Below, piece by piece: positions 3,070-46,477 of a DNA stretch of 61,290 nucleotides. The notes under the pieces were generated by a model. The model made no database searches. It was not told the DNA's origin and saw only the letters and a program-made list of their open reading frames with translations. Every line of letters starts with the position of its first letter. Positions within the stretch are counted from its first letter, which is position 1. The position numbers and the translations under genes are program-made. Source of the DNA: an uncultured Bdellovibrionales bacterium (GTDB lineage Bacteria > Patescibacteriota > Minisyncoccia > Moranbacterales > UBA1568); contig CAZUWR010000004.1 in the NCBI GenBank assembly GCA_964624415.1, positions 1-61,290 of the forward strand, written 5' to 3'.

Positions 3070-3627
3070 TTAGGCCCGCGAGACATAGGTCCCCTGCTCG
3101 GTGTTGATGACGATGCGGTCGCCTTCTTTGACGAAAAGCGGCGTTGTCACTTTCAGCCCCGTTTCCACCGTCACCACTTTGTCACCGCCGGATACAGAAT
3201 CCCCCTTGATTCCCGGAGGCGCATCGGTCACGAGCAATGTCATCTTGATCGGCAGCTCCATATTGACCGGCTGTCCATTGAACTGCAGGATGGTCACCTC
3301 TGTCCCTTCCACTAGATACGAAGCATTCTGACCGAGCGTTTCCTTGGACAAGAAGAACTGATCGTACGTCTCATTGTTCATAAAGACATAGTTTTCTCCC
3401 TCCTGGTACAGGTATTGGGCCTTAGCCTTGGACATATCGGCATTGTCAATCTTTTCCGATCCCTGGAAGGTCTTGTCGATGACTGCACCCGTCAGCAAGT
3501 TCTTGAGTTTCGTGCGCAGCACCGCACCGGCACGACCGGTCTTGGAATGTTCATGATGCAGCACGACGTATGGCTGGTCTTCCCAAAGGATGTTTTTTCC
3601 TGTTTTGATTTCGCTGAGATTCAACAT
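3070..3627 (-). CDS. efp: elongation factor P
   Basis: ORF 3070..3669 trimmed to Met15: MLNLSEIKTGKNILWEDQPYVVLHHEHSKTGRAGAVLRTKLKNLLTG... with VTDAPPGIKGDSVSGGDKVVTVETG. Length of 185 aa and three-domain EF-P layout. Confidence 0.93.
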   Translation of the reverse strand: MLNLSEIKTGKNILWEDQPYVVLHHEHSKTGRAGAVLRTKLKNLLTGAVIDKTFQGSEKIDNADMSKAKAQYLYQEGENYVFMNNETYDQFFLSKETLGQNASYLVEGTEVTILQFNGQPVNMELPIKMTLLVTDAPPGIKGDSVSGGDKVVTVETGLKVTTPLFVKEGDRIVINTEQGTYVSRA

Positions 3628-3637
3628 AGGATTATAT

Positions 3638-3790
3638 AACTGAACTATCACAATTTTTTCCGCCCCCAAGACTCGAAGGCCTTTGCGTTACCTGAAAATA
3701 TCCCTCACTCGACACAATCAATGGCTATTTTCAGAACGCAGAAAGCCGTCTCAGACATATTGGGTTCGGAAAAATTGTAATAATTCAGTT
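3638..3790 (-). ncRNA. candidate structured RNA element, copy 1 (~153-nt extended hairpin between rpsR and efp)
   Basis: - Outer arms 3638-3662 / 3767-3790 pair over 24 positions.
- Inner stem CTGAAAATA/TATTTTCAG closes a 25-nt apex.
- The 37-nt core 3695-3731 is identical to 38724-38760.
- Both non-Watson-Crick positions of the outer stem are C:A on the plus strand but G:U in a minus-strand transcript. Confidence 0.55.
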
Positions 3791-3806
3791 CTTTGAGTAA
3801 CGAGGA

Positions 3807-4013
3807 TTATCGAATGACATACGGGATCAACGCCATAAAACGGGCGCGCTTGATCGCCTGCGTCAGCTCACGCTGCTGCTTGGTGCTCAGACCGTACTTC
3901 TTCGGTGGGTAAATCTTCCCCTGCGAGTTCAGGAAACGGCGCAAAAAATACGCGTCCTTGTAATCGATATTGTCGAGCTTCTCGGAAGAAGCGGTATTTT
4001 TAGTGTCTATCAT
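3807..4013 (-). CDS. rpsR: 30S ribosomal protein S18
   Basis: 68 aa, DYKDAYFLRRFLNSQGKIYPPKKYGLSTKQQRELTQAIKRARFMALIPY. Last gene of the rpsF-ssb-rpsR arrangement. Confidence 0.93.
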   Translation of the reverse strand: MIDTKNTASSEKLDNIDYKDAYFLRRFLNSQGKIYPPKKYGLSTKQQRELTQAIKRARFMALIPYVIR

Positions 4014-4738: not shown

Positions 4739-5311
4739 TTAGATGTGAAGCACTTCCTCCAATTGCTTGTCGAGATCTGCCTCGCTCATAGTCTCTGCTT
4801 TTGCAGTTGTCTCTTTCTTAGTAGTAGCAGCAACTTCTTCAACCTTTTTTTCCTGCGGCGTTTCAACAGCTTGCGCCTTCGGTGCGCGTACCACCTTTTT
4901 CTCGATAGCTACCTTCTTGGCCTGAGCCTCTTTGGCGACTTCTGCTACCACCTTGGCCGTACCCTCTTCTTCGGGCAAGAGTGCTGGAAGATTCTCCGCA
5001 CGCACGGTAATGAATCGCAGTACATCGCGATACAGTGTCAGCTTGTGATTGATGCGTCCGAGAATGCTCGGTTCACCAGCCTCGACGCTCACCTCGCGAT
5101 CATTACGATCAGGAGTGGTGAATCGCTGTGCGATATAGGTACCACGAACCTCTCGCTTGATAGCATAAGCCAGCTTACGCTTCTCCAACTTCTCGGCACC
5201 GGTATAGGTACCCCCCTCAGCCTCAACAATCGCTTTGACCTCTTCCCTGATACGCGTAAGATCCACTTCTTTGGACTCAGCGATCAGATAGAGCAGTTCG
5301 TATTCTATCAT
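4739..5311 (-). CDS. rpsF: 30S ribosomal protein S6 with ~85-aa Lys/Glu/Ala-rich C-terminal extension
   Basis: MIEYELLYLIAESKE...EKLEKRKLAYAIKREVRGTYIAQRF...HKLTLYRDVLRFITV matches S6. First gene of rpsF-ssb-rpsR. Residues ~106-190 are low complexity. Confidence 0.88.
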   Translation of the reverse strand: MIEYELLYLIAESKEVDLTRIREEVKAIVEAEGGTYTGAEKLEKRKLAYAIKREVRGTYIAQRFTTPDRNDREVSVEAGEPSILGRINHKLTLYRDVLRFITVRAENLPALLPEEEGTAKVVAEVAKEAQAKKVAIEKKVVRAPKAQAVETPQEKKVEEVAATTKKETTAKAETMSEADLDKQLEEVLHI

Positions 5312-6809: not shown

Positions 6810-8495
6810 CTAGCCAAGCGCCTTTACTGCTTTTTCATAATATCCCATTTTCCCATACCCAAGACTGCTGAGCACCGATGTCGTCTTATTAAATACGCGT
6901 CCATTCTGCTTGAGTCTATGATAATGCTTGGAGTGGCTGAGCATAGTCTCCACCAGCTGATTGACTCCGCTTACATAGACCTGCTTGCCTTTGCGTTCCA
7001 CTATATCCACAATCTCATCGAAGGCATCGACGCCGTCAAGATCGATAAAGGAGAGTTCGCGAAAACGCAAAATGACATGCTCATAATCCGTTAATTTCTT
7101 TTCAAACCGATCGATATGCGCCAAAGCATTCAAATACGCCAACTGCCCTTTGAGTGAATAGACCATCGTGTGACACTGCTCGAAAGTATGATCCTCCGAC
7201 ATAACCACCGATTTATCACCCATCACCGAGCCGAGCACATGCTGGTCCGGATTATTGAAAACCAATTCAAATTGACCCTGCGACATTTTTTCCATAAAGA
7301 GCACGAGTGCAATAGCCGTACCCGCCAAAATACCCATCATCGGATCATGATACACTGTCAGGAAAGCCACGAGAATCATAATCCAAAAGCCGTGTCGATC
7401 GAAATCATACGCTCGTCGATAATGATGCAGTTCTACCATACGGATGGCGGCGAATACCAAAATAGCAGCAATGACCGCGAGCGGGATGTATTTGAAATAC
7501 CCGAACAGAAAAATGGAAATAAGCGCCACGAAAACGCTCTGCAAAAAACACGCCGTCCTATCGGTCGCACCGGTCTTTACATTCAATGCTGTACGCGCGA
7601 AAACACCCGTCGCAGGAAGGCCACCGAAAATGCCGGAAGCAATATTAGCGAATGCCAAAGCCTTCATTTCCTTTCGACGACCGTACTTGTGTTTTGTCTT
7701 GGCCATACCATCCGCGATATTGGCGGAAATGAGCGTCTCAAGAATCGCCACGAATGCCACGGTCAGGGCGGTGATAACAATATCCCACGAAACGGTCGGT
7801 TGCGTGAAAGCAAATAATCGCATCTGCACATCACCGTATGTCGATTGCAGGGTCTGCAATGCAAAAGGAATCATCCCCTTGGAAGAAAGCATACCGATAA
7901 TGATACCGATAGGCGCCAAAATGACTGCGCCAGGCATCTTCGGTGTCCACCTCGAAAACAAGAACAGTCCAGCGAGGAAAACAAGGAAAACCACAGAAGT
8001 TATCGGCGAGGCAGCGCTGATATGATGGAACGATTCACTGAGATTATCTACCAGCTTCTCATGTTTCGGAAGGCCGGAAAGGCCGAAAGCGAAATTAAAC
8101 TGCCCGAGTCCGATAGTGAGCGCCACACCGAGCGTAAATCCATGCAAAGCGCTGGCGGGCACAAATACCAAGTATCGTTCAAGTTTCAAAAAGTATGCTA
8201 CGAGAATAAAAAGCCCTGTGATGACAGCAAGCGAAGGTAAGGCCTCAAATCCGTGCGCGAAAGCAAACAAGGCTAAAATACCGGAAAGCGCTCCGGCCGG
8301 ACCCACAACATTGTACTTGCTGCCCGCAAAAAACGAATATACCAGACCAGCCCAGACAGCTGTCAGAATACCCTGAAGAGGAGTCGCTCCGGAAGCGATG
8401 GCCAATGAAAGGGAGAGCGGTATGGATATGAGCGCGACTGTCAATCCGGATTTCCAATTAGACTTCATTTTTTCCAATGAAAGAAACGTTGCCAT
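6810..8495 (-). CDS. SulP-family anion transporter with C-terminal STAS domain
   Basis: 561 aa. N-terminus SGLTVALISIPLSLSLAIASGATPLQGILTAVWAGLVYSFFAGS and more than 10 TM helices. C-terminal ~130 aa are STAS-like (ILRFRELSFIDLDGVDAFDEIV). Confidence 0.88.
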   Translation of the reverse strand: MATFLSLEKMKSNWKSGLTVALISIPLSLSLAIASGATPLQGILTAVWAGLVYSFFAGSKYNVVGPAGALSGILALFAFAHGFEALPSLAVITGLFILVAYFLKLERYLVFVPASALHGFTLGVALTIGLGQFNFAFGLSGLPKHEKLVDNLSESFHHISAASPITSVVFLVFLAGLFLFSRWTPKMPGAVILAPIGIIIGMLSSKGMIPFALQTLQSTYGDVQMRLFAFTQPTVSWDIVITALTVAFVAILETLISANIADGMAKTKHKYGRRKEMKALAFANIASGIFGGLPATGVFARTALNVKTGATDRTACFLQSVFVALISIFLFGYFKYIPLAVIAAILVFAAIRMVELHHYRRAYDFDRHGFWIMILVAFLTVYHDPMMGILAGTAIALVLFMEKMSQGQFELVFNNPDQHVLGSVMGDKSVVMSEDHTFEQCHTMVYSLKGQLAYLNALAHIDRFEKKLTDYEHVILRFRELSFIDLDGVDAFDEIVDIVERKGKQVYVSGVNQLVETMLSHSKHYHRLKQNGRVFNKTTSVLSSLGYGKMGYYEKAVKALG

Positions 8496-10863: not shown

Positions 10864-10974
10864 CGACTCCACTTTTTTTCGTGTAAATCCTGCATTCACC
10901 ATACCGGCAGTATAGCAATTTCAAGCCAAAAAGCAAGGGCTCAGTAACTATCCCAAATCTCATGCCGAGCTATA

Positions 10975-11070
10975 CATTTGAAAATTCCGAGCGAAAAAGC
11001 TGAAAAGTGCGAAGGGCTATCAGGATAACTCGACAAGCTTTTCGGTTTTTACAGCCGGAATTTTCGAATG
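10975..11070. other. ~96-nt imperfect intercistronic hairpin (ftsK | rodZ-like)
   Basis: CATTTGAAAATTCCG (10975-10989) pairs with CGGAATTTTCGAATG (11056-11070). An inner stem CGAAAAAGCT / AGCTTTTCG is also present. Confidence 0.45.
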
Positions 11071-11127
11071 TTAGCCGGTAAGCAGTGTTTTTTGTTTCAC
11101 ATGCGCGGTGAGATTCGAGATAGTTAC

Positions 11128-13560
11128 TTACATTTGCCACCGATCGCGCTTCTCTTGTTCGGAGAAAACATCCTCTTCCTGATGATCCGCATCATCGGAA
11201 ACCGCAGCGCCATCCGCATACACTTCTCTGGGCTTGGCGCCATCGGACGGACCGATAATACCATCCTCTTCGAGGAGATCAAGGATACGCGCCGCACGGG
11301 AATACCCCACGCGCAAACGTCGTTGTAGCAAAGATGCGGACGCCTTGCCTGCTTGTATGACCAGGGCTTTAGCTTCCATATAGAGGTCATCTTCCGAGGA
11401 ATGATTACCTTCCGATGCATCATCCATATCGAAGGCCATCTCGCCGGGCGCGGACGATGACTGTCCTAATCCGAGCGAAGCGATCTCATCGGGAATATCT
11501 TCTTCATTGCCATCCTCACGCTTTTGCTGTTTCAGAAAATCCACCACGCGCTTCACCTCTTCTTCAGTAATCAAAACGCCCTGCAAACGTTTCGGTTGAT
11601 TGGATCCCGTGGAGAGATAGAGCATATCGCCGCGTCCGAGGAGTTTTTCCGCCCCGCCCTGATCCAAGATAGTGCGCGAATCGATCTGTGTCGCCACCTG
11701 AAAGGCGATGCGCGTCGTGATATTGGCTTTGATCAATCCCGTCAAAACTTCGACACTCGGCCGCTGCGTCGCCAAGATCAAGTGAATACCGACTGCACGC
11801 GACATCTGTGCCAAGCGCACAATCAAACCCTCTACATCCTTGCCATGCGCCATAATAAGATCCGCCATTTCATCGATGACAATAACGATATACGGCAGCT
11901 TCTCAAGATCTTCTTCGGAACTCTTATTTGTTTTGACATTGACCACCGTGCGTTTCTCTCCTTTGTCGTACTTCTGTTTATACGAAGCAAGGTCACGCGA
12001 TCCTACTTCCTGCAGCACCTTATACCGTCGTTCCATTTCATCCACCGCCCATTTCAAAACCTTGACCACCTTTTTATTTTCCACGATAACCGGTGTCAAA
12101 AGATGCGGGATGCCATTATACAAAGACAATTCCACGCGCTTCGGATCCACCAGGATAAATTTGAGATCATCCGGTGAATTCTGATACAAAAGCGAAATCA
12201 AGAGCGTATTGACGCACACACTTTTTCCAGAATTGGTCGCTCCCGCTACTAGCAAGTGCGGCATTTTTCGCAAATCGCTCAACACATACTCCCCCATCAC
12301 ATCCTCTCCCAACACCAGCATCATATTCCCCTCCCGCTTGGTAAATCCTGGTTTTTTGAGTATGGATTTCATGCGCACCATAGAAGACGACTGATTCGGC
12401 ACCTCTATGCCCACCAATGACTTTCCCGGAATAGGCGCCTCGATACGGATAGACTGCGCTGCGAGTTCCAAAGCGAGGTCATTGCTCAAAGACGTAATGC
12501 GGGAAAGCTTGACACCTGCTGTCGGACGGAACGTATACTGCGTCACAGTCGGCCCCGTCTGAATCTCGCCGAGCTCTACGGAAATACCGAAATGCTTAAG
12601 TGTTTTTTGAATAATGATCGCATTATGCTCGTTTTTGGCGCCCTTGTCCCGAGGCATTTCCGTATCCAAAAGATCCATCGATGGCAAAACCCAGTGCCGC
12701 TTCACAGTCCTCTTCTTGCGAGGCTTTACTTTCTCAGTAAAAGTATCGTCGTCCTCACTCTCAGACACCCCATTATCAGCCGTTTCTCCCACAAACTCGA
12801 TATGGCGGATATTTTCCGCTTCCAGCATCGCGGATTCATCATAAGGAAGTGCTGACGCTTCCATTGGAAAAGGCATCTCCATCGGTGACTCTTGCACCGA
12901 ATCTCGAGAAAGCGGCGACTCCATATCCAGAACGCTTTCGGATTCATCCGTAATTTCATGTTCAACATCCAATTGTTTATCGCGCTTCAAGCGTGATTGC
13001 AGACGTTCAAAAAAATGGATAAGTGAAACATTGAAAGCTGTCATCAAACCGGTAAGCAACAGCGTGGCCAAAATAAGTGTCCCGGCCACCGTACCCGTAA
13101 ACTTCTGTAGCACGAAAGCGAGCGCGAATCCGATATAACCACCACCAATACCCGACTGTGCCGCCTTAAGCAAATCCTCACGCAAATACAAATGGAAAAA
13201 ACCAAGCAGACTTATAAAGGCAACTGTCAGTCCTGCAAGTTTCAAAAACTCCGCCAAAGAACTCTGACGACGATGTAGTAAAAAGACACTCGCTGTCATA
13301 AGAACCGGAGGGAAAGCCCACTTACCCCATCCGAAGAGTTTTCCGAGCACGCTATTGAGAAAACTCCCTAAAAGGCCGGCGCCCTCGAAAAATCCCAACA
13401 CAAACAATACCGCTAATGCGAAAAGTACAACTGCAATAATACTTCGCTTAGTATCCCCGTGCAGCAAAGGAACCTCTTCTTCCTCAAGGGTTTCCTCGTC
13501 TTCCAACGGAATCTCGGCGTACTTTTTTTTTCGTCCCATAAAAATATGTGTATACGACAT
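11128..13560 (-). CDS. ftsK: DNA translocase FtsK/SpoIIIE
   Basis: N-terminal TM helices, acidic linker, motor domain with AGATNSGKSV (Walker A) and VIVIDEMADL (Walker B), and a gamma winged helix ASLLQRRLRVGYSRAARILDLLEEDGIIGP. Confidence 0.93.
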   Translation of the reverse strand: MSYTHIFMGRKKKYAEIPLEDEETLEEEEVPLLHGDTKRSIIAVVLFALAVLFVLGFFEGAGLLGSFLNSVLGKLFGWGKWAFPPVLMTASVFLLHRRQSSLAEFLKLAGLTVAFISLLGFFHLYLREDLLKAAQSGIGGGYIGFALAFVLQKFTGTVAGTLILATLLLTGLMTAFNVSLIHFFERLQSRLKRDKQLDVEHEITDESESVLDMESPLSRDSVQESPMEMPFPMEASALPYDESAMLEAENIRHIEFVGETADNGVSESEDDDTFTEKVKPRKKRTVKRHWVLPSMDLLDTEMPRDKGAKNEHNAIIIQKTLKHFGISVELGEIQTGPTVTQYTFRPTAGVKLSRITSLSNDLALELAAQSIRIEAPIPGKSLVGIEVPNQSSSMVRMKSILKKPGFTKREGNMMLVLGEDVMGEYVLSDLRKMPHLLVAGATNSGKSVCVNTLLISLLYQNSPDDLKFILVDPKRVELSLYNGIPHLLTPVIVENKKVVKVLKWAVDEMERRYKVLQEVGSRDLASYKQKYDKGEKRTVVNVKTNKSSEEDLEKLPYIVIVIDEMADLIMAHGKDVEGLIVRLAQMSRAVGIHLILATQRPSVEVLTGLIKANITTRIAFQVATQIDSRTILDQGGAEKLLGRGDMLYLSTGSNQPKRLQGVLITEEEVKRVVDFLKQQKREDGNEEDIPDEIASLGLGQSSSAPGEMAFDMDDASEGNHSSEDDLYMEAKALVIQAGKASASLLQRRLRVGYSRAARILDLLEEDGIIGPSDGAKPREVYADGAAVSDDADHQEEDVFSEQEKRDRWQM

Positions 13561-13606
13561 TAATACCTACAGTATACTACACAATCATATGAAACTATAG
13601 TGCACA

Positions 13607-13769
13607 TATACTGAAACTTACACCTAACTGCGTGTACCATTCCAATATTTCGGCTGCGACTTTGAGAAAATCACTCAACGTATCTACGGATATGTCTTCT
13701 CATTTTCACTTCGTCTCGCTCGAAATATCAAAATAGTCCTGTACGCAGTTAGGTGTAAGTTTCAGTATA
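13607..13769. other. 163-nt hairpin with 27-bp perfect stem upstream of ftsK
   Basis: TATACTGAAACTTACACCTAACTGCGT (13607-13633) is the exact reverse complement of ACGCAGTTAGGTGTAAGTTTCAGTATA (13743-13769). The interior has further pairing (AATATTTCG / CGAAATAT). Confidence 0.6.
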
Positions 13770-13770
13770 A

Positions 13771-13794
13771 CACAAAACCCGCTTGTGGCGGGTT
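13771..13794 (-). terminator. rho-independent terminator of the CAP-domain gene
   Basis: AACCCGC (13776-13782) / GCGGGTT (13788-13794), followed on the minus strand by TTTTGTG. It lies 8 nt past the stop at 13802. Confidence 0.65.
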
Positions 13795-17050: not shown

Positions 17051-17056
17051 CTCTAT

Positions 17057-17179
17057 TAGGACTTACGCGTTTGAGCGTAGTTCTAGGCGCGAATGAGGAC
17101 ACGGAGTAAGCCGTATATATGATACGGTGTCGAGTACCGGAATTCGGAACGACGAAATGCGCCAAACGCGTAAGTCCTA
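17057..17179. other. 123-nt hairpin with 17-bp perfect closing stem, ending 6 nt upstream of the murD start codon
   Basis: TAGGACTTACGCGTTTG (17057-17073) is the exact reverse complement of CAAACGCGTAAGTCCTA (17163-17179). Internal hairpin CCGTAT-ATATG-ATACGG. Confidence 0.6.
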
Positions 17180-17247
17180 TGTGTATAAAAGAGTCTCCAT
17201 CGTCCGAACACTTTGTCGAGAATACTTATTGTAGAGCGTGCTGAAGT

Positions 17248-37582: not shown

Positions 37583-38635
37583 CTACACCTTGAAAATCAT
37601 CACATCGCCATCCTTGACGATATATTCTTTACCCTCAAGACGAAGCTTGCCGGTCTCGCGTGCCTTGCCCCAGGCTCCGGCATCGAGCAGGTCCTGCCAA
37701 TGGATCACTTCCGCGCGGATGAATTTGTCTTCGAAGTCGCTGTGGATGGCTGCGCCTGCCTGCGGCGCGGTCGAGCCCTGCTTGATCGTCCAAGCACGCG
37801 TCTCCTGTTCGCCCGTGGTGAAAAAAGTCATCAGTCCCAAAAGCGAATAGGCTTTGCGGATCAAATCGTGAATATGCGATTGCAATTCCAACTCCTGTTT
37901 ATCCTCCTCGGACATATCCATCAATTCCTCCTCGATCTTGATATCCAATCGCACATACGGCTTTTCCTCCAAGTGTGCCGGAAGCGTCGCCTCAAGATCC
38001 GACATATTATACACATACAAAAACGGCTTGGCGGTCAAGAGCGACAACTCGATCATCAGCTTCCTCACGGCTTCGTCCTGCATATTGACGGGCACGGTAT
38101 TGGCGAGCTGTCCTTTGGACAACCCTGTTTCCAAAGCCTCAAGCACCCCGAACTGCGCGATCGCTTCCTTGTTGCCGGCGCGCACTTCCTTGATACTGCG
38201 AACTTTGCGCTTGGCGATGGTTTCCATATCCGCCAAAATAAGCTCGGTATTGACGATATCGATATCGTGCTCACCATCCACCTTGTTGTGCACGTGGATG
38301 ATATTCGGATTTTCGAACAAACGCACCACCTGCACAATGGCATCCACCTCGCGGATATTGGCCAAAAATTTATTCCCCAATCCCTCGCCCTGACTTGCCC
38401 CTTTGACGAGTCCCGCGATATCCACAAATTCCACCACGGCCGGTACGATCTTTTTCGTCTTGGACATATCCGACAATTGCTGCAAACGGGTGTCCGGCAC
38501 TTCCACGATGCCCACATTGGGCTCGATAGTGCAGAATGGATAATTGTTGATATCCACCGTTTTGCGCGTCAATACCTTGAACAGGGTTGATTTCCCCACA
38601 TTCGGCAGCCCCACGATTCCAACTTGCAATGCCAT
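37583..38635 (-). CDS. ychF: ribosome-binding ATPase YchF
   Basis: [23 protein letters not shown] (G1), [20 protein letters not shown], and a TGS-like C-terminus [15 protein letters not shown]. 350 aa. Confidence 0.95.
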
Positions 38636-38664
38636 AAGAGTAGTATTAAAAAAATATCTTGTTT

Positions 38665-38819
38665 CTTGCTCGGGTATTCAAAATTTTTGTCCAAATAGAC
38701 TCGGGCTGTATGTTTTTTATCTAAAAATATCCCTCACTCGACACAATCAATGGCTATTTTTAGAAAAAACATACGCCCTTAAACAATATTTGACCAAAAA
38801 TTTCAAACACCCAAGCGAG
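38665..38819 (-). ncRNA. candidate structured RNA element, copy 2 (~155-nt extended hairpin upstream of ychF)
   Basis: - Outer arms 38665-38688 / 38796-38819.
- Nearly continuous helix down to CTAAAAATA/TATTTTTAG, which closes the same 25-nt apex.
- The core 38724-38760 is identical to 3695-3731.
- Of five non-Watson-Crick outer-stem positions, four become G:U only in the minus-strand transcript. Confidence 0.55.
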
Positions 38820-38983
38820 AAAATGTAAGCGTGACTATACCCCATTCTAGCGGAAAAATGGGGAAAAGTAAAGGTTTCGGCATTGTGAGGCAAAGTAAAA
38901 AGCGCCGGGAAGATACATTGTCTCTATATTATTATAGAGACATATCTTCATCGACGCTTCGGTGCTCGGTTTCGAGCAGAAAC

Positions 38984-42746: not shown

Positions 42747-42780
42747 AGTATAAAAATTACTGCTTACGCTTGTTCTTTGA

Positions 42781-42913
42781 GTAACTGTCTGCAATATTTT
42801 CGTTTTTTGCTTTTGCAGAGTGTTTTTTCGAACTGCCGGGTCAAAGACGAAAGGCGAGAAAAAATACTATACAAAAGCCAAAAAATAAGAGGAAAAAGAT
42901 TTTAGACAGTTAC
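42781..42913. other. ~133-nt imperfect hairpin upstream of the rhodanese gene
   Basis: GTAACTGTCT (42781-42790) is the exact reverse complement of AGACAGTTAC (42904-42913). Interior pairings include TTTTTGCTTTTG / CAAAAGCCAAAAA and TCTGCAA / TTGCAGA. Confidence 0.4.
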
Positions 42914-42945
42914 CAAAACGATTTTACTGATCCATATATGATAGC

Positions 42946-46393: not shown

Positions 46394-46477
46394 TGGGGAT
46401 AGAGAGACTCGAACTCTCACAGTATCGCTACCACTGGCACCTGAAGCCAGCGTGTCTACCAATTCCACCATATCCCC
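46394..46477 (-). tRNA. tRNA-Leu (anticodon CAG)
   Basis: Hand-folded cloverleaf:
- acceptor GGGGATA/TATCCCC
- D arm GTG-GAATTGGTAGA-CAC
- anticodon arm CTGGC-TTCAGGT-GCCAG (CAG)
- long variable arm
- T arm GAGAG-TTCGAGT-CTCTC
- discriminator A; CCA not encoded. Confidence 0.9.

Follow-up and report, generated by a model that had tools for sequence, protein, structure and literature searches.

We analysed a 61,290-nucleotide stretch of a genome from the candidate phyla radiation (CPR, or Patescibacteria), deposited as an uncultured Bdellovibrionales bacterium (contig CAZUWR010000004.1 of assembly GCA_964624415.1; hereafter the window). Two long, related hairpins, named copy A and copy B, lie on its minus strand in the spacers upstream of efp and ychF. 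Copy A (3636..3792, minus strand) fills the spacer between rpsR, the upstream gene for ribosomal protein S18 (3807-4013, minus strand; Pfam PF01084, E = 4e-22), and efp, the downstream gene for elongation factor P (EF-P; 3070-3627, minus strand), whose homologues carry EFP_N, EFP and C-terminal domains. It has the same orientation as both genes, and the efp start codon is found 10 nt past the hairpin base. Copy B (38663..38821, minus strand) lies in the 5' untranslated region of ychF (37583-38635, minus strand), the downstream gene, which was recognised by homology as encoding a ribosome-binding ATPase. Both window copies are thus found in sense orientation, directly upstream of translation-related genes.

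The two hairpins have a 37-nt centre in common, AAAATATCCCTCACTCGACACAATCAATGGCTATTTT, which is present at two positions of the window and at no others (3695-3731 and 38724-38760, plus strand in each case), while no repeated 37-mer is expected by chance (100 shuffles). The initial annotation, made from the sequence alone, had described two homologous hairpin regions with this identical centre, and the match is exact at both of the positions it gave. The hairpins that it placed at 3638-3790 and 38665-38819 are real, and only their ends needed correction, since they reach to about 3636-3792 and 38663-38821. Its arm sequences are present in the window as written, and the arms have indeed diverged while remaining self-complementary: outside the 37-mer the copies are 42% identical (51/121 aligned columns), and despite this divergence each forms one long hairpin of ~155 nt. 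The G:C to A:T change noted next to the apex is also present as written (CTGAAAATA...TATTTTCAG versus CTAAAAATA...TATTTTTAG). Within the 37-mer lies a conserved apical module of 24 nt, CCAUUGAUUGUGUCGAGUGAGGGA (minus strand, 3701..3724 in copy A and 38730..38753 in copy B). This apex had been taken for an invariant 25-nt loop; it is shared by the two copies, but on the minus strand it is partly structured and not a plain loop.

On the minus strand, copy A folds with -68.6 kcal/mol (z = -8.8) and copy B with -66.7 kcal/mol (z = -10.5), and none of 200 shuffles was as good in either case. The plus-strand energies are -50.0 and -52.4 kcal/mol, respectively. The better fold of the minus strand, on which the flanking genes are also encoded, arises because the A·C mismatches of the plus strand are G·U pairs there. 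The minus strand is also the likely functional strand, a correction to the initial annotation.

Copies, hosts and mobility of the hairpin family

Beyond what the initial annotation had described, copies A and B are members of a multi-copy mobile family, for which relatives have empty sites. The family occurs in both orientations to genes, and four more long hairpins are inserted in the window. Species-representative genomes, scanned with an exact 21-nt core, yielded five copies in the metagenome-assembled genome (MAG) CAYVME01 and one in a Moraniibacteriota MAG, and a metagenome scan with an exact 19-nt core yielded 18 more loci. The total beyond the window is about 25 copies, in Candidatus Moranbacteria MAGs and metagenomes. 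These collection scans used exact patterns only, the other genomes were read as 8-21-kb pieces, and the gene calls in loci outside the window (designated by L numbers) are simple open reading frame (ORF) calls. The exact 21-mer core had no match in viral contigs. One core match (L017) is a chance match in a coding sequence; all others are long hairpins. A covariance-model search, which the initial annotation had proposed, recovered additional copies with variant apexes; copies A and B score 87.4 and 104.6 bits. Homologues of EF-P, YchF and trigger factor assign all host genomes to Candidatus Moranbacteria/Moraniibacteriota, including the MAG labelled 'Bdellovibrionales'. The distribution is patchy, as is usual for mobile repeats: when covariance model R1 was run over 150 kb at eight other Moranbacteria loci (72 kb belonging to the window genome's relatives and 78 kb to four low-GC Moranbacteria), it detected no copy.

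The element is ~155-165 nt long and forms one imperfect hairpin of about 65-70 bp. Its conserved features are the 24-nt asymmetric apex, a 2-nt bulge 3' of the apical stem, GAG-containing internal loops or bulges on both arms, and an A/U-only helix (AAUUUUU/AAAAAUU). The remaining stem sequence varies between copies and pairs within each. The copies can be grouped into subfamily 1 (copy A, L005, L010, L016 and L023), subfamily 2 (copy B, L018, L024, L029 and L032) and subfamily 3, a low-GC group in AMFJ01/CAYVME01 and Ga0172380. ORFs inside the elements have only 10-19 codons and are not conserved. The hairpins occupy the whole spacer, ending 3-30 nt from the neighbour genes. About nine copies are sense and eight antisense to the flanking ORFs. 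The neighbours of the other copies are unrelated genes, including xerC-like, thioredoxin reductase, nusA, recJ and glycosyltransferase genes and a gene for a heavy-metal-associated-domain protein.

The two window sites differ between relatives in a manner that reveals insertion. The rpsR-efp spacer is 179 nt long in the window and 78, 17 and 10 nt long in relatives whose EF-P proteins are 94, 87 and 83% identical. The copy A site is empty in L025, L026 and L027, and an unrelated hairpin of 60 nt lies in the 78-nt spacer of L025. At ychF, the window, L029, L018 and L024 have the site filled alike, whereas L030 and L031 have it empty, with the insertion point in the middle of TTTAAA, between the T and A triplets. 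In the more distant L032, the ychF site holds a subfamily-2 copy in the opposite orientation. This inverted copy is 67% identical to copy B, has 10 G·U pairs and no A·C mismatch on its own strand, and folds with -84.4 versus -60.4 kcal/mol. The empty sites in close relatives and the inverted L032 copy together indicate that the element is inserted, mobile DNA. Several contigs terminate inside element copies.

Copy A is flanked by an 8-nt direct repeat, ATAATCCT, of which the left unit (3803..3810, minus strand) overlaps with the stop codon of rpsR and is set 12 nt away from the hairpin base, and the right unit (3628..3635, minus strand) immediately precedes the efp ATG. This repeat may be a target-site duplication, an uncertain assignment: an automated search at 18 copies returned only this 8-mer and nothing comparable at the 17 others. 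By Pfam, the window ORFs belong to housekeeping families only, about a quarter of them having no Pfam match, and no transposase or insertion sequence was detected among them.

Some copies are found in pairs or at changed flanks. In L003, two direct copies (1535-1723 and 7131-7320) lie around a 5.5-kb segment starting with an XerC-like recombinase gene; their 3' arms are identical, and one apex is rewritten. In L022, inverted copies (1210-1398 and 3254-3442) lie around a gene for a 611-aa heavy-metal-associated-domain protein, and L014 is a 5.8-kb contig with inverted copies at both ends. These arrangements could be composite mobile units, or products of assembly or recombination at the repeats. 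L001, L007 and L019 come from two assemblies, apparently of the same dataset, and have the same right flank and different left flanks across one element copy: one left flank carries a gene for a 791-aa protein, and the other a gene for a 612-aa heavy-metal-associated-domain protein. Either recombination at the repeat or an assembly chimera would explain the difference.

The insertion at ychF also gives a view of what happened after insertion. The four lineages sharing it are the group nearest the window by identity of the adjacent PGM gene, so that one insertion followed by vertical descent is the simplest reading. The Jukes-Cantor distance of copy B from its counterparts in L029, L018 and L024 is 0.066, 0.059 and 0.122, while the PGM third codon positions have distances of 0.357 (L029) and 0.629 (L024). 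Thus, the ychF copy evolves about five times slower than third codon positions of the neighbouring gene. The spacer beside copy B is barely alignable, with the exception of a promoter-like motif (see below). Among the changed stem pairs of copy B, 15 are kept and 7 are broken, some of the latter at the uncertain stem base. Because its divergence is several-fold slower than that of neutral sites, copy B appears to have been under purifying selection since its insertion.

The selected strand and its possible roles

The stems of all subfamilies favour one strand. The predicted stems of 17 full copies comprise 1041 Watson-Crick and 109 G·U pairs, with just 5 single A·C mismatches, although the G·U and A·C counts should be similar if there were no strand preference. 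Each stem has 6-11 G·U pairs (about 9% of all pairs), and the apex-sense strand is the better folder in every copy. In the covariance-model alignment R1, 96.1% of the cells of the 27 upper-stem pairs are paired, versus 83.0% in shuffles, and 14 of the 27 pairs have changes on both sides. None of 500 shuffles reached the observed paired fraction or covariation score, and a single one reached 14 pairs; when the 3' partner was slid by 1-3 columns as a control, pairing fell to 47-61%. The R1 alignment was fitted to the structure and so leans towards it, and the slid controls and a raw MAFFT alignment agree with the result. The covariation, the strand bias of the G·U pairs and the slow evolution of the ychF copy support the proposal of the initial annotation that this is a selected structure and not a decaying duplicate. 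We thus have a mobile repeat family whose single-stranded fold is kept on one strand, both before and after insertion.

The selected strand is most likely RNA, given that selection acts on one strand with ~9% G·U pairs and that the window copies lie in what appear to be transcribed spacers. A predicted promoter-like site, TTTACT-17 nt-TAGAAT (38844..38872, minus strand), is located about 22 nt upstream of copy B, and the corresponding CTTTACT...CGCTAGRAT is kept in L029-L032, L018 and L024, with or without the element. This conserved site implies that copy B would be transcribed within the ychF leader. The rpsR-efp spacer has no promoter-like site, and copy A would therefore belong to the rpsR-efp transcript.

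On balance, we think it probable, though well short of certain, that copies A and B are divergent representatives of a hitherto undescribed family of mobile, palindromic and non-autonomous elements of ~155-165 nt (foldback elements resembling miniature inverted-repeat transposable elements, MITEs) in the ultra-small Candidatus Moranbacteria, the strand-specific fold of which elements is read as a selected RNA. Full-text literature searches gave no description of this family, and those aimed at such repeats in the CPR lineage gave no report of them. Under this reading, copies A and B would be transcribed within mRNA, where each would form its own self-contained stalk of double-stranded RNA with the conserved apex on top. 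The ~65-70-bp stalk could shield the neighbouring cistrons from interference by the insertion. The hairpin might be processed by a double-strand-specific enzyme such as those of the RNase III type, might protect an mRNA end, or might serve both purposes. The apex would be a putative protein-binding site, recognised by a host factor or by the enzyme that copies the element to new sites.

About 25 copies, drawn from at least five assemblies, have the apical module without any change, a number to be read with the bias of exact 19-21-mer scans towards identity. The variant apexes found otherwise are informative about what is retained. The apex of the L032 copy, CCUAUGGAUGCCGUUGAGAGAGGGA, differs from the canonical one at about eight positions, that of L003:7171-7280 has five changed positions, and L020:9015-9144 combines a lower stem that can still be recognised with a different, branched apex. 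CC...GAU...YGAG.GAG survives in the variant apexes, and the GAU...UGA core is retained in those of L032 and L003:7171-7280. The lower stem of the L020 copy has subfamily 3 features (AUUUUUAAAAAA...UUUUUUACAAAAUAU, and CCGAG on the 3' arm). The element may therefore be modular, with a carrier stem and exchangeable apical inserts.

The apex, when drawn by hand, bears a possible resemblance to a kink-turn or box C/D-type motif, which binds L7Ae-family proteins. It can be drawn as a CC/GG helix, a 3-nt AUU bulge, tandem G·A/A·G pairs and then U·U, parts that follow one another in a kink-turn in this order. It differs from a kink-turn in an extra unpaired G on the non-bulged strand, forced by the extended helix, and its positions are invariant in the canonical copies and hence show no covariation there. 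The bulge positions A3 and U4 vary in L007, L015 and L024, as kink-turn bulges may. A C/D small nucleolar RNA model of Rfam gave weak matches over the apex of two copies, at 19 and 13 bits, far below its gathering score of 43.

A bolder proposal, which we put forward tentatively and regard as rather doubtful, is that the element is a mobile functional RNA module: a double-stranded RNA stalk would present the kink-turn-like 24-nt apex, which would recruit a specific protein, and Moranbacteria would draw on the element at many of their loci for transcript processing, insulation or tuning. If this were true, it would be a new class of dispersed RNA element in CPR bacteria, regulatory or forming ribonucleoproteins, with strand selection held even in antisense positions. 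The hosts would be bacteria with small genomes and few regulators, for which the element would be more than tolerated selfish DNA.

Several observations weigh against reading the family as mobile elements with a selected RNA fold. About half of the copies are antisense to both flanking genes and have the same strand bias, so read-through mRNA cannot supply the selected strand there. The bias at these copies would fit transcription, whether autonomous or antisense, or else an intermediate of single-stranded DNA, and the family alignment revealed no conserved promoter or terminator belonging to the element itself. The termini are not conserved between copies, which have only the centre in common; with no consistent target duplication found either, the defining marks of a transposase-driven MITE are absent. 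Some of the apparent invariance of the apex stems from ascertainment, since the scans required an exact core, and among the four copies found by the model or by synteny only L029, the copy B orthologue, has the canonical apex. Finally, recent spread by recombination, and not selection, could be the reason why copy B has diverged so slowly.

The antisense copies would be accommodated if the hairpins were independently transcribed genes for trans-acting small RNAs (sibling small RNAs), with the apex as an interaction surface for a protein or a target RNA. Structural selection on one strand whatever the orientation of the neighbouring gene, the purifying selection on copy B, and an apex conserved while the stems covary all suit such genes. 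We nevertheless consider this unlikely: no conserved flanking sequence upstream or downstream is fit for a promoter or terminator, the hairpins fill their spacers to within 3-30 nt of the genes, and copy A lies inside the rpsR-efp unit, which offers no promoter-like site. In addition, sites that are filled in one lineage and empty in another, and patchy bursts of copies in certain genomes, would be expected rather of a mobile repeat.

It is about equally improbable, in our judgement, that the selected form is single-stranded DNA and the hairpin a strand-specific substrate of a recombinase or transposase (of the attC, IS200/IS605-end or REP/RAYT type) with no RNA function. That the element is mobile, that its orientation is independent of transcription and that the ychF spacer is occupied both ways in different lineages would all be expected of such a substrate. 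In L003, the XerC-like tyrosine recombinase gene starts 10 nt after one copy, with the second copy 5.5 kb away. G·T is also the least destabilising mismatch in DNA. However, every stem here has 6-11 wobble pairs (~9% of all pairs), a content that structured RNAs typically have and that would be costly to a hairpin of DNA. Conserved R/L boxes or cleavage sites are missing from the hairpin base, the copies form no arrays, and the window has no integrase, HUH or RAYT gene. Orientation is also unlinked to gene direction, taken as a proxy for replication direction. Moreover, copy B has been kept at its site under purifying selection since the four lineages split, for which a pure transposition substrate would have no need.

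The sense placement of both window copies directly upstream of translation-related genes might suggest a cis-regulatory leader specific to translation-factor genes (efp and ychF), such as a protein- or ligand-binding attenuator. As a general explanation this is refuted, and we give it very little credence: other copies lie beside unrelated genes, about half of them antisense, and close relatives have efp and ychF without the element. The occurrence of both orientations relative to genes shows that the family is not a translation-factor-gene leader, although a local effect of the element on efp or ychF expression is possible. A chance palindrome or a decaying segmental duplication without selected structure, for which only the A+T-rich composition of the arms would speak, is refuted by the unexpected 37-mer repeat, the z-scores of the two folds, the covarying stems, the strand-biased wobbles and the dozens of copies in other genomes.

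The reading as a mobile family with a selected RNA fold has consequences for a part of bacterial diversity that is large and understudied. The family would be a tractable RNA structure with real covariation and could serve as a marker for strain-level genome dynamics and assembly breaks, and its invariant apex is a candidate handle for finding the protein that binds or mobilises it.

Other hairpins and features of the window

The window contains four further long hairpins. Hairpin D (13604-13772) is a different foldback of ~165 nt with perfect 27-bp terminal arms (TATACTGAAAC...), located between a CAP-domain gene and ftsK. Its site is empty in the close relative L025, which has an 83%-identical copy across the CAP gene (L025 1265-1429), and its insertion sites have a TA/TATA duplication. 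Like the family of copies A and B, hairpin D has a conserved centre, covarying inner arms and a strand bias (-85 versus -71 and -79 versus -57 kcal/mol). Hairpin C (10940-11131) is a clean insertion of ~190 nt just past the ftsK stop codon, as compared with L025, and has a weak relative at L018 4418-4514. Hairpin F (42773-42921) is a long intergenic hairpin sharing the terminal GTAACTRTCT with hairpin C, which suggests that the two form one element family. Hairpin E (17054-17182; 129 nt), with 17-bp perfect outer arms, lies between Mur ligase and amidohydrolase genes and has a 71%-identical relative at L018 5941-6055.

The motif GTYGAGT occurs six times in the window (3707, 11028, 13673, 17129, 38736 and 43088), versus about 12 expected. 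Five of these occurrences are at or near the centres of hairpins A, B, C, D and E, an enrichment that is post hoc because the motif was picked after sighting. GTYGAGT may be an apical signal shared across hairpin families. We rejected the idea of a motif avoided genome-wide, as the relatives have 44 occurrences versus 55 expected and thus no depletion.

Unrelated long hairpins are found in the same spacers (rpsR-efp, nusA-DHH and clpP-iPGM) of other Moranbacteria, at L025 9941-9989, L033 8880-9001 and 12066-12225, and L035 9904-9994 and 11983-12142; some of them have tandem heptamers (TAGGAAT, GAATCAA) mirrored on the opposite arm. Long spacer hairpins thus appear to be a general, fast-turning-over feature of Moranbacteria genomes. 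Together with copies A and B, the four other window hairpins suggest that Moranbacteria spacers have been colonised by foldback elements of ~130-190 nt, at least one of which would have been kept by purifying selection after insertion.

Two observations concern the genes of the window. Start codons are found ~6 nt after a TG-preceded -10-like hexamer at about 10900-10925 and about 38636-38660 (both minus strand). In the first case, TGCTATACT-GCCGGT-ATG lies upstream of a helix-turn-helix-domain gene and is kept in L025, and in the second, TAATACT-ACTCTT-ATG lies upstream of ychF. From the sequence, this suggests that leaderless or near-leaderless mRNAs may exist in this lineage. Ribosomal protein S6 (4739-5311, minus strand; 190 aa) matches the Pfam S6 domain at residues 4-74 only and continues beyond it as a long charged C-terminal extension.

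Comparison with known elements

The initial annotation recognised no named RNA family here, and our scans agree. With Rfam 15 at gathering scores, the whole window yielded only a tRNA gene (84 nt, 46394-46477, minus strand; 56.9 bits). Relaxed Rfam scans of copy A, copy B and L002 gave noise shaped like microRNA precursors, at 13-32 bits against thresholds of 43-195. A promoter inside the apex (TTGATT...TATTTT, seen by eye) was rejected, as the window copies space the two hexamers 15 nt apart and the low-GC subfamily has not kept them. A terminator made of a hairpin and a U-tract is not general: low-GC copies have GGAUUUUUC after the inner stem, and copy A has an A-run there. Small ORFs, of 17 codons ending in the copy A apex and of 19 codons on the other strand, were rejected, as they are not conserved between subfamilies in start, frame or length. 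The idea of a GANTC (GAGTC) methylation site was dropped, since subfamilies 1 and 2 have the motif in their 3' arm and subfamily 3 lacks it. Type I toxin-antitoxin systems, retrons, 6S RNA, SRP RNA and ribozymes (hammerhead and others) have no matching features here, and the copy number and context of the elements are wrong for them.

Integron attC sites are, like the present elements, imperfect palindromes (57-141 nt) that conserve structure over sequence and fold on one strand. They have conserved R and L boxes at the stem base (RYYYAAC...GTTRRRY) and a variable apex, and they form arrays of cassettes in the same orientation next to intI. Here the apex is conserved and the base variable, the copies are dispersed both ways, and the window has no integrase, so we rejected this assignment. 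REP sequences and RAYT-mobilised REPINs are likewise interspersed, hairpin-forming, intergenic in either orientation and strand-specific as single strands. REP sequences are described as 20-40 nt long, having a GTAG or CGTC head that is conserved along with the sequence of the stem (PMC3733652). The present elements have a conserved loop and variable stems, no tetranucleotide head and a length of ~155 nt (about four times longer), and the window has no RAYT gene; they were therefore not assigned to this class.

TIGR arrays, which accompany Tas (Nop-domain) proteins in CPR bacteria and phages, consist of tandem units beside tas, the loops of which are variable 8-12-nt guides (PMC12045711). They share with the present family CPR hosts and hairpin units in which the palindromic stems vary and short motifs close to the loop are conserved; the apex of the present family also starts with CCA and contains UG, like the TIGR 'box C' and 'box D' (PMC12045711). 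The present copies, however, are single and dispersed with an invariant loop, and no window ORF has a Nop-domain match, which excludes a TIGR array.

The closest known kind of element is the bacterial MITE-like palindromic repeat, exemplified by Correia/NEMIS in Neisseria, ERIC/IRU in enterobacteria, RPE in Rickettsia and CIR in Caulobacter and Brucella. Such repeats are 100-200 bp long, non-coding and intergenic, have filled and empty sites and give long stem-loop transcripts (Delihas 2008, PMC2229807). They include a 155-bp Correia element with an internal IHF site and CIR with a conserved terminal-loop motif, and some of them act on mRNA via RNase III or RNase E (PMC2229807). The Moranbacteria family shares with them its length, its non-coding and multi-copy nature, its mostly intergenic location, filled and empty sites and long, stable stem-loops, and probably also, judging from the context of copies A and B, co-transcription with neighbour genes. 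By the classical definition of a MITE, it is shorter than 300 bp, non-coding, dispersed in more than 25 copies and polymorphic in insertion, but it lacks terminal inverted repeats that are common to the copies and match a parent insertion sequence. Unlike for the MITE-like repeats, no 5'-TA-3' termini and no consistent target duplication were found for it, and it has no known related insertion sequence. The extreme wobble bias (109 to 5) and the measurable purifying selection after insertion are further differences. Above all, its centre is conserved and its termini are not, and its arms, 42% identical between copies A and B, covary. MITEs usually show the opposite of this combination of a conserved centre and free arms, a contrast that bears on how such elements are copied.

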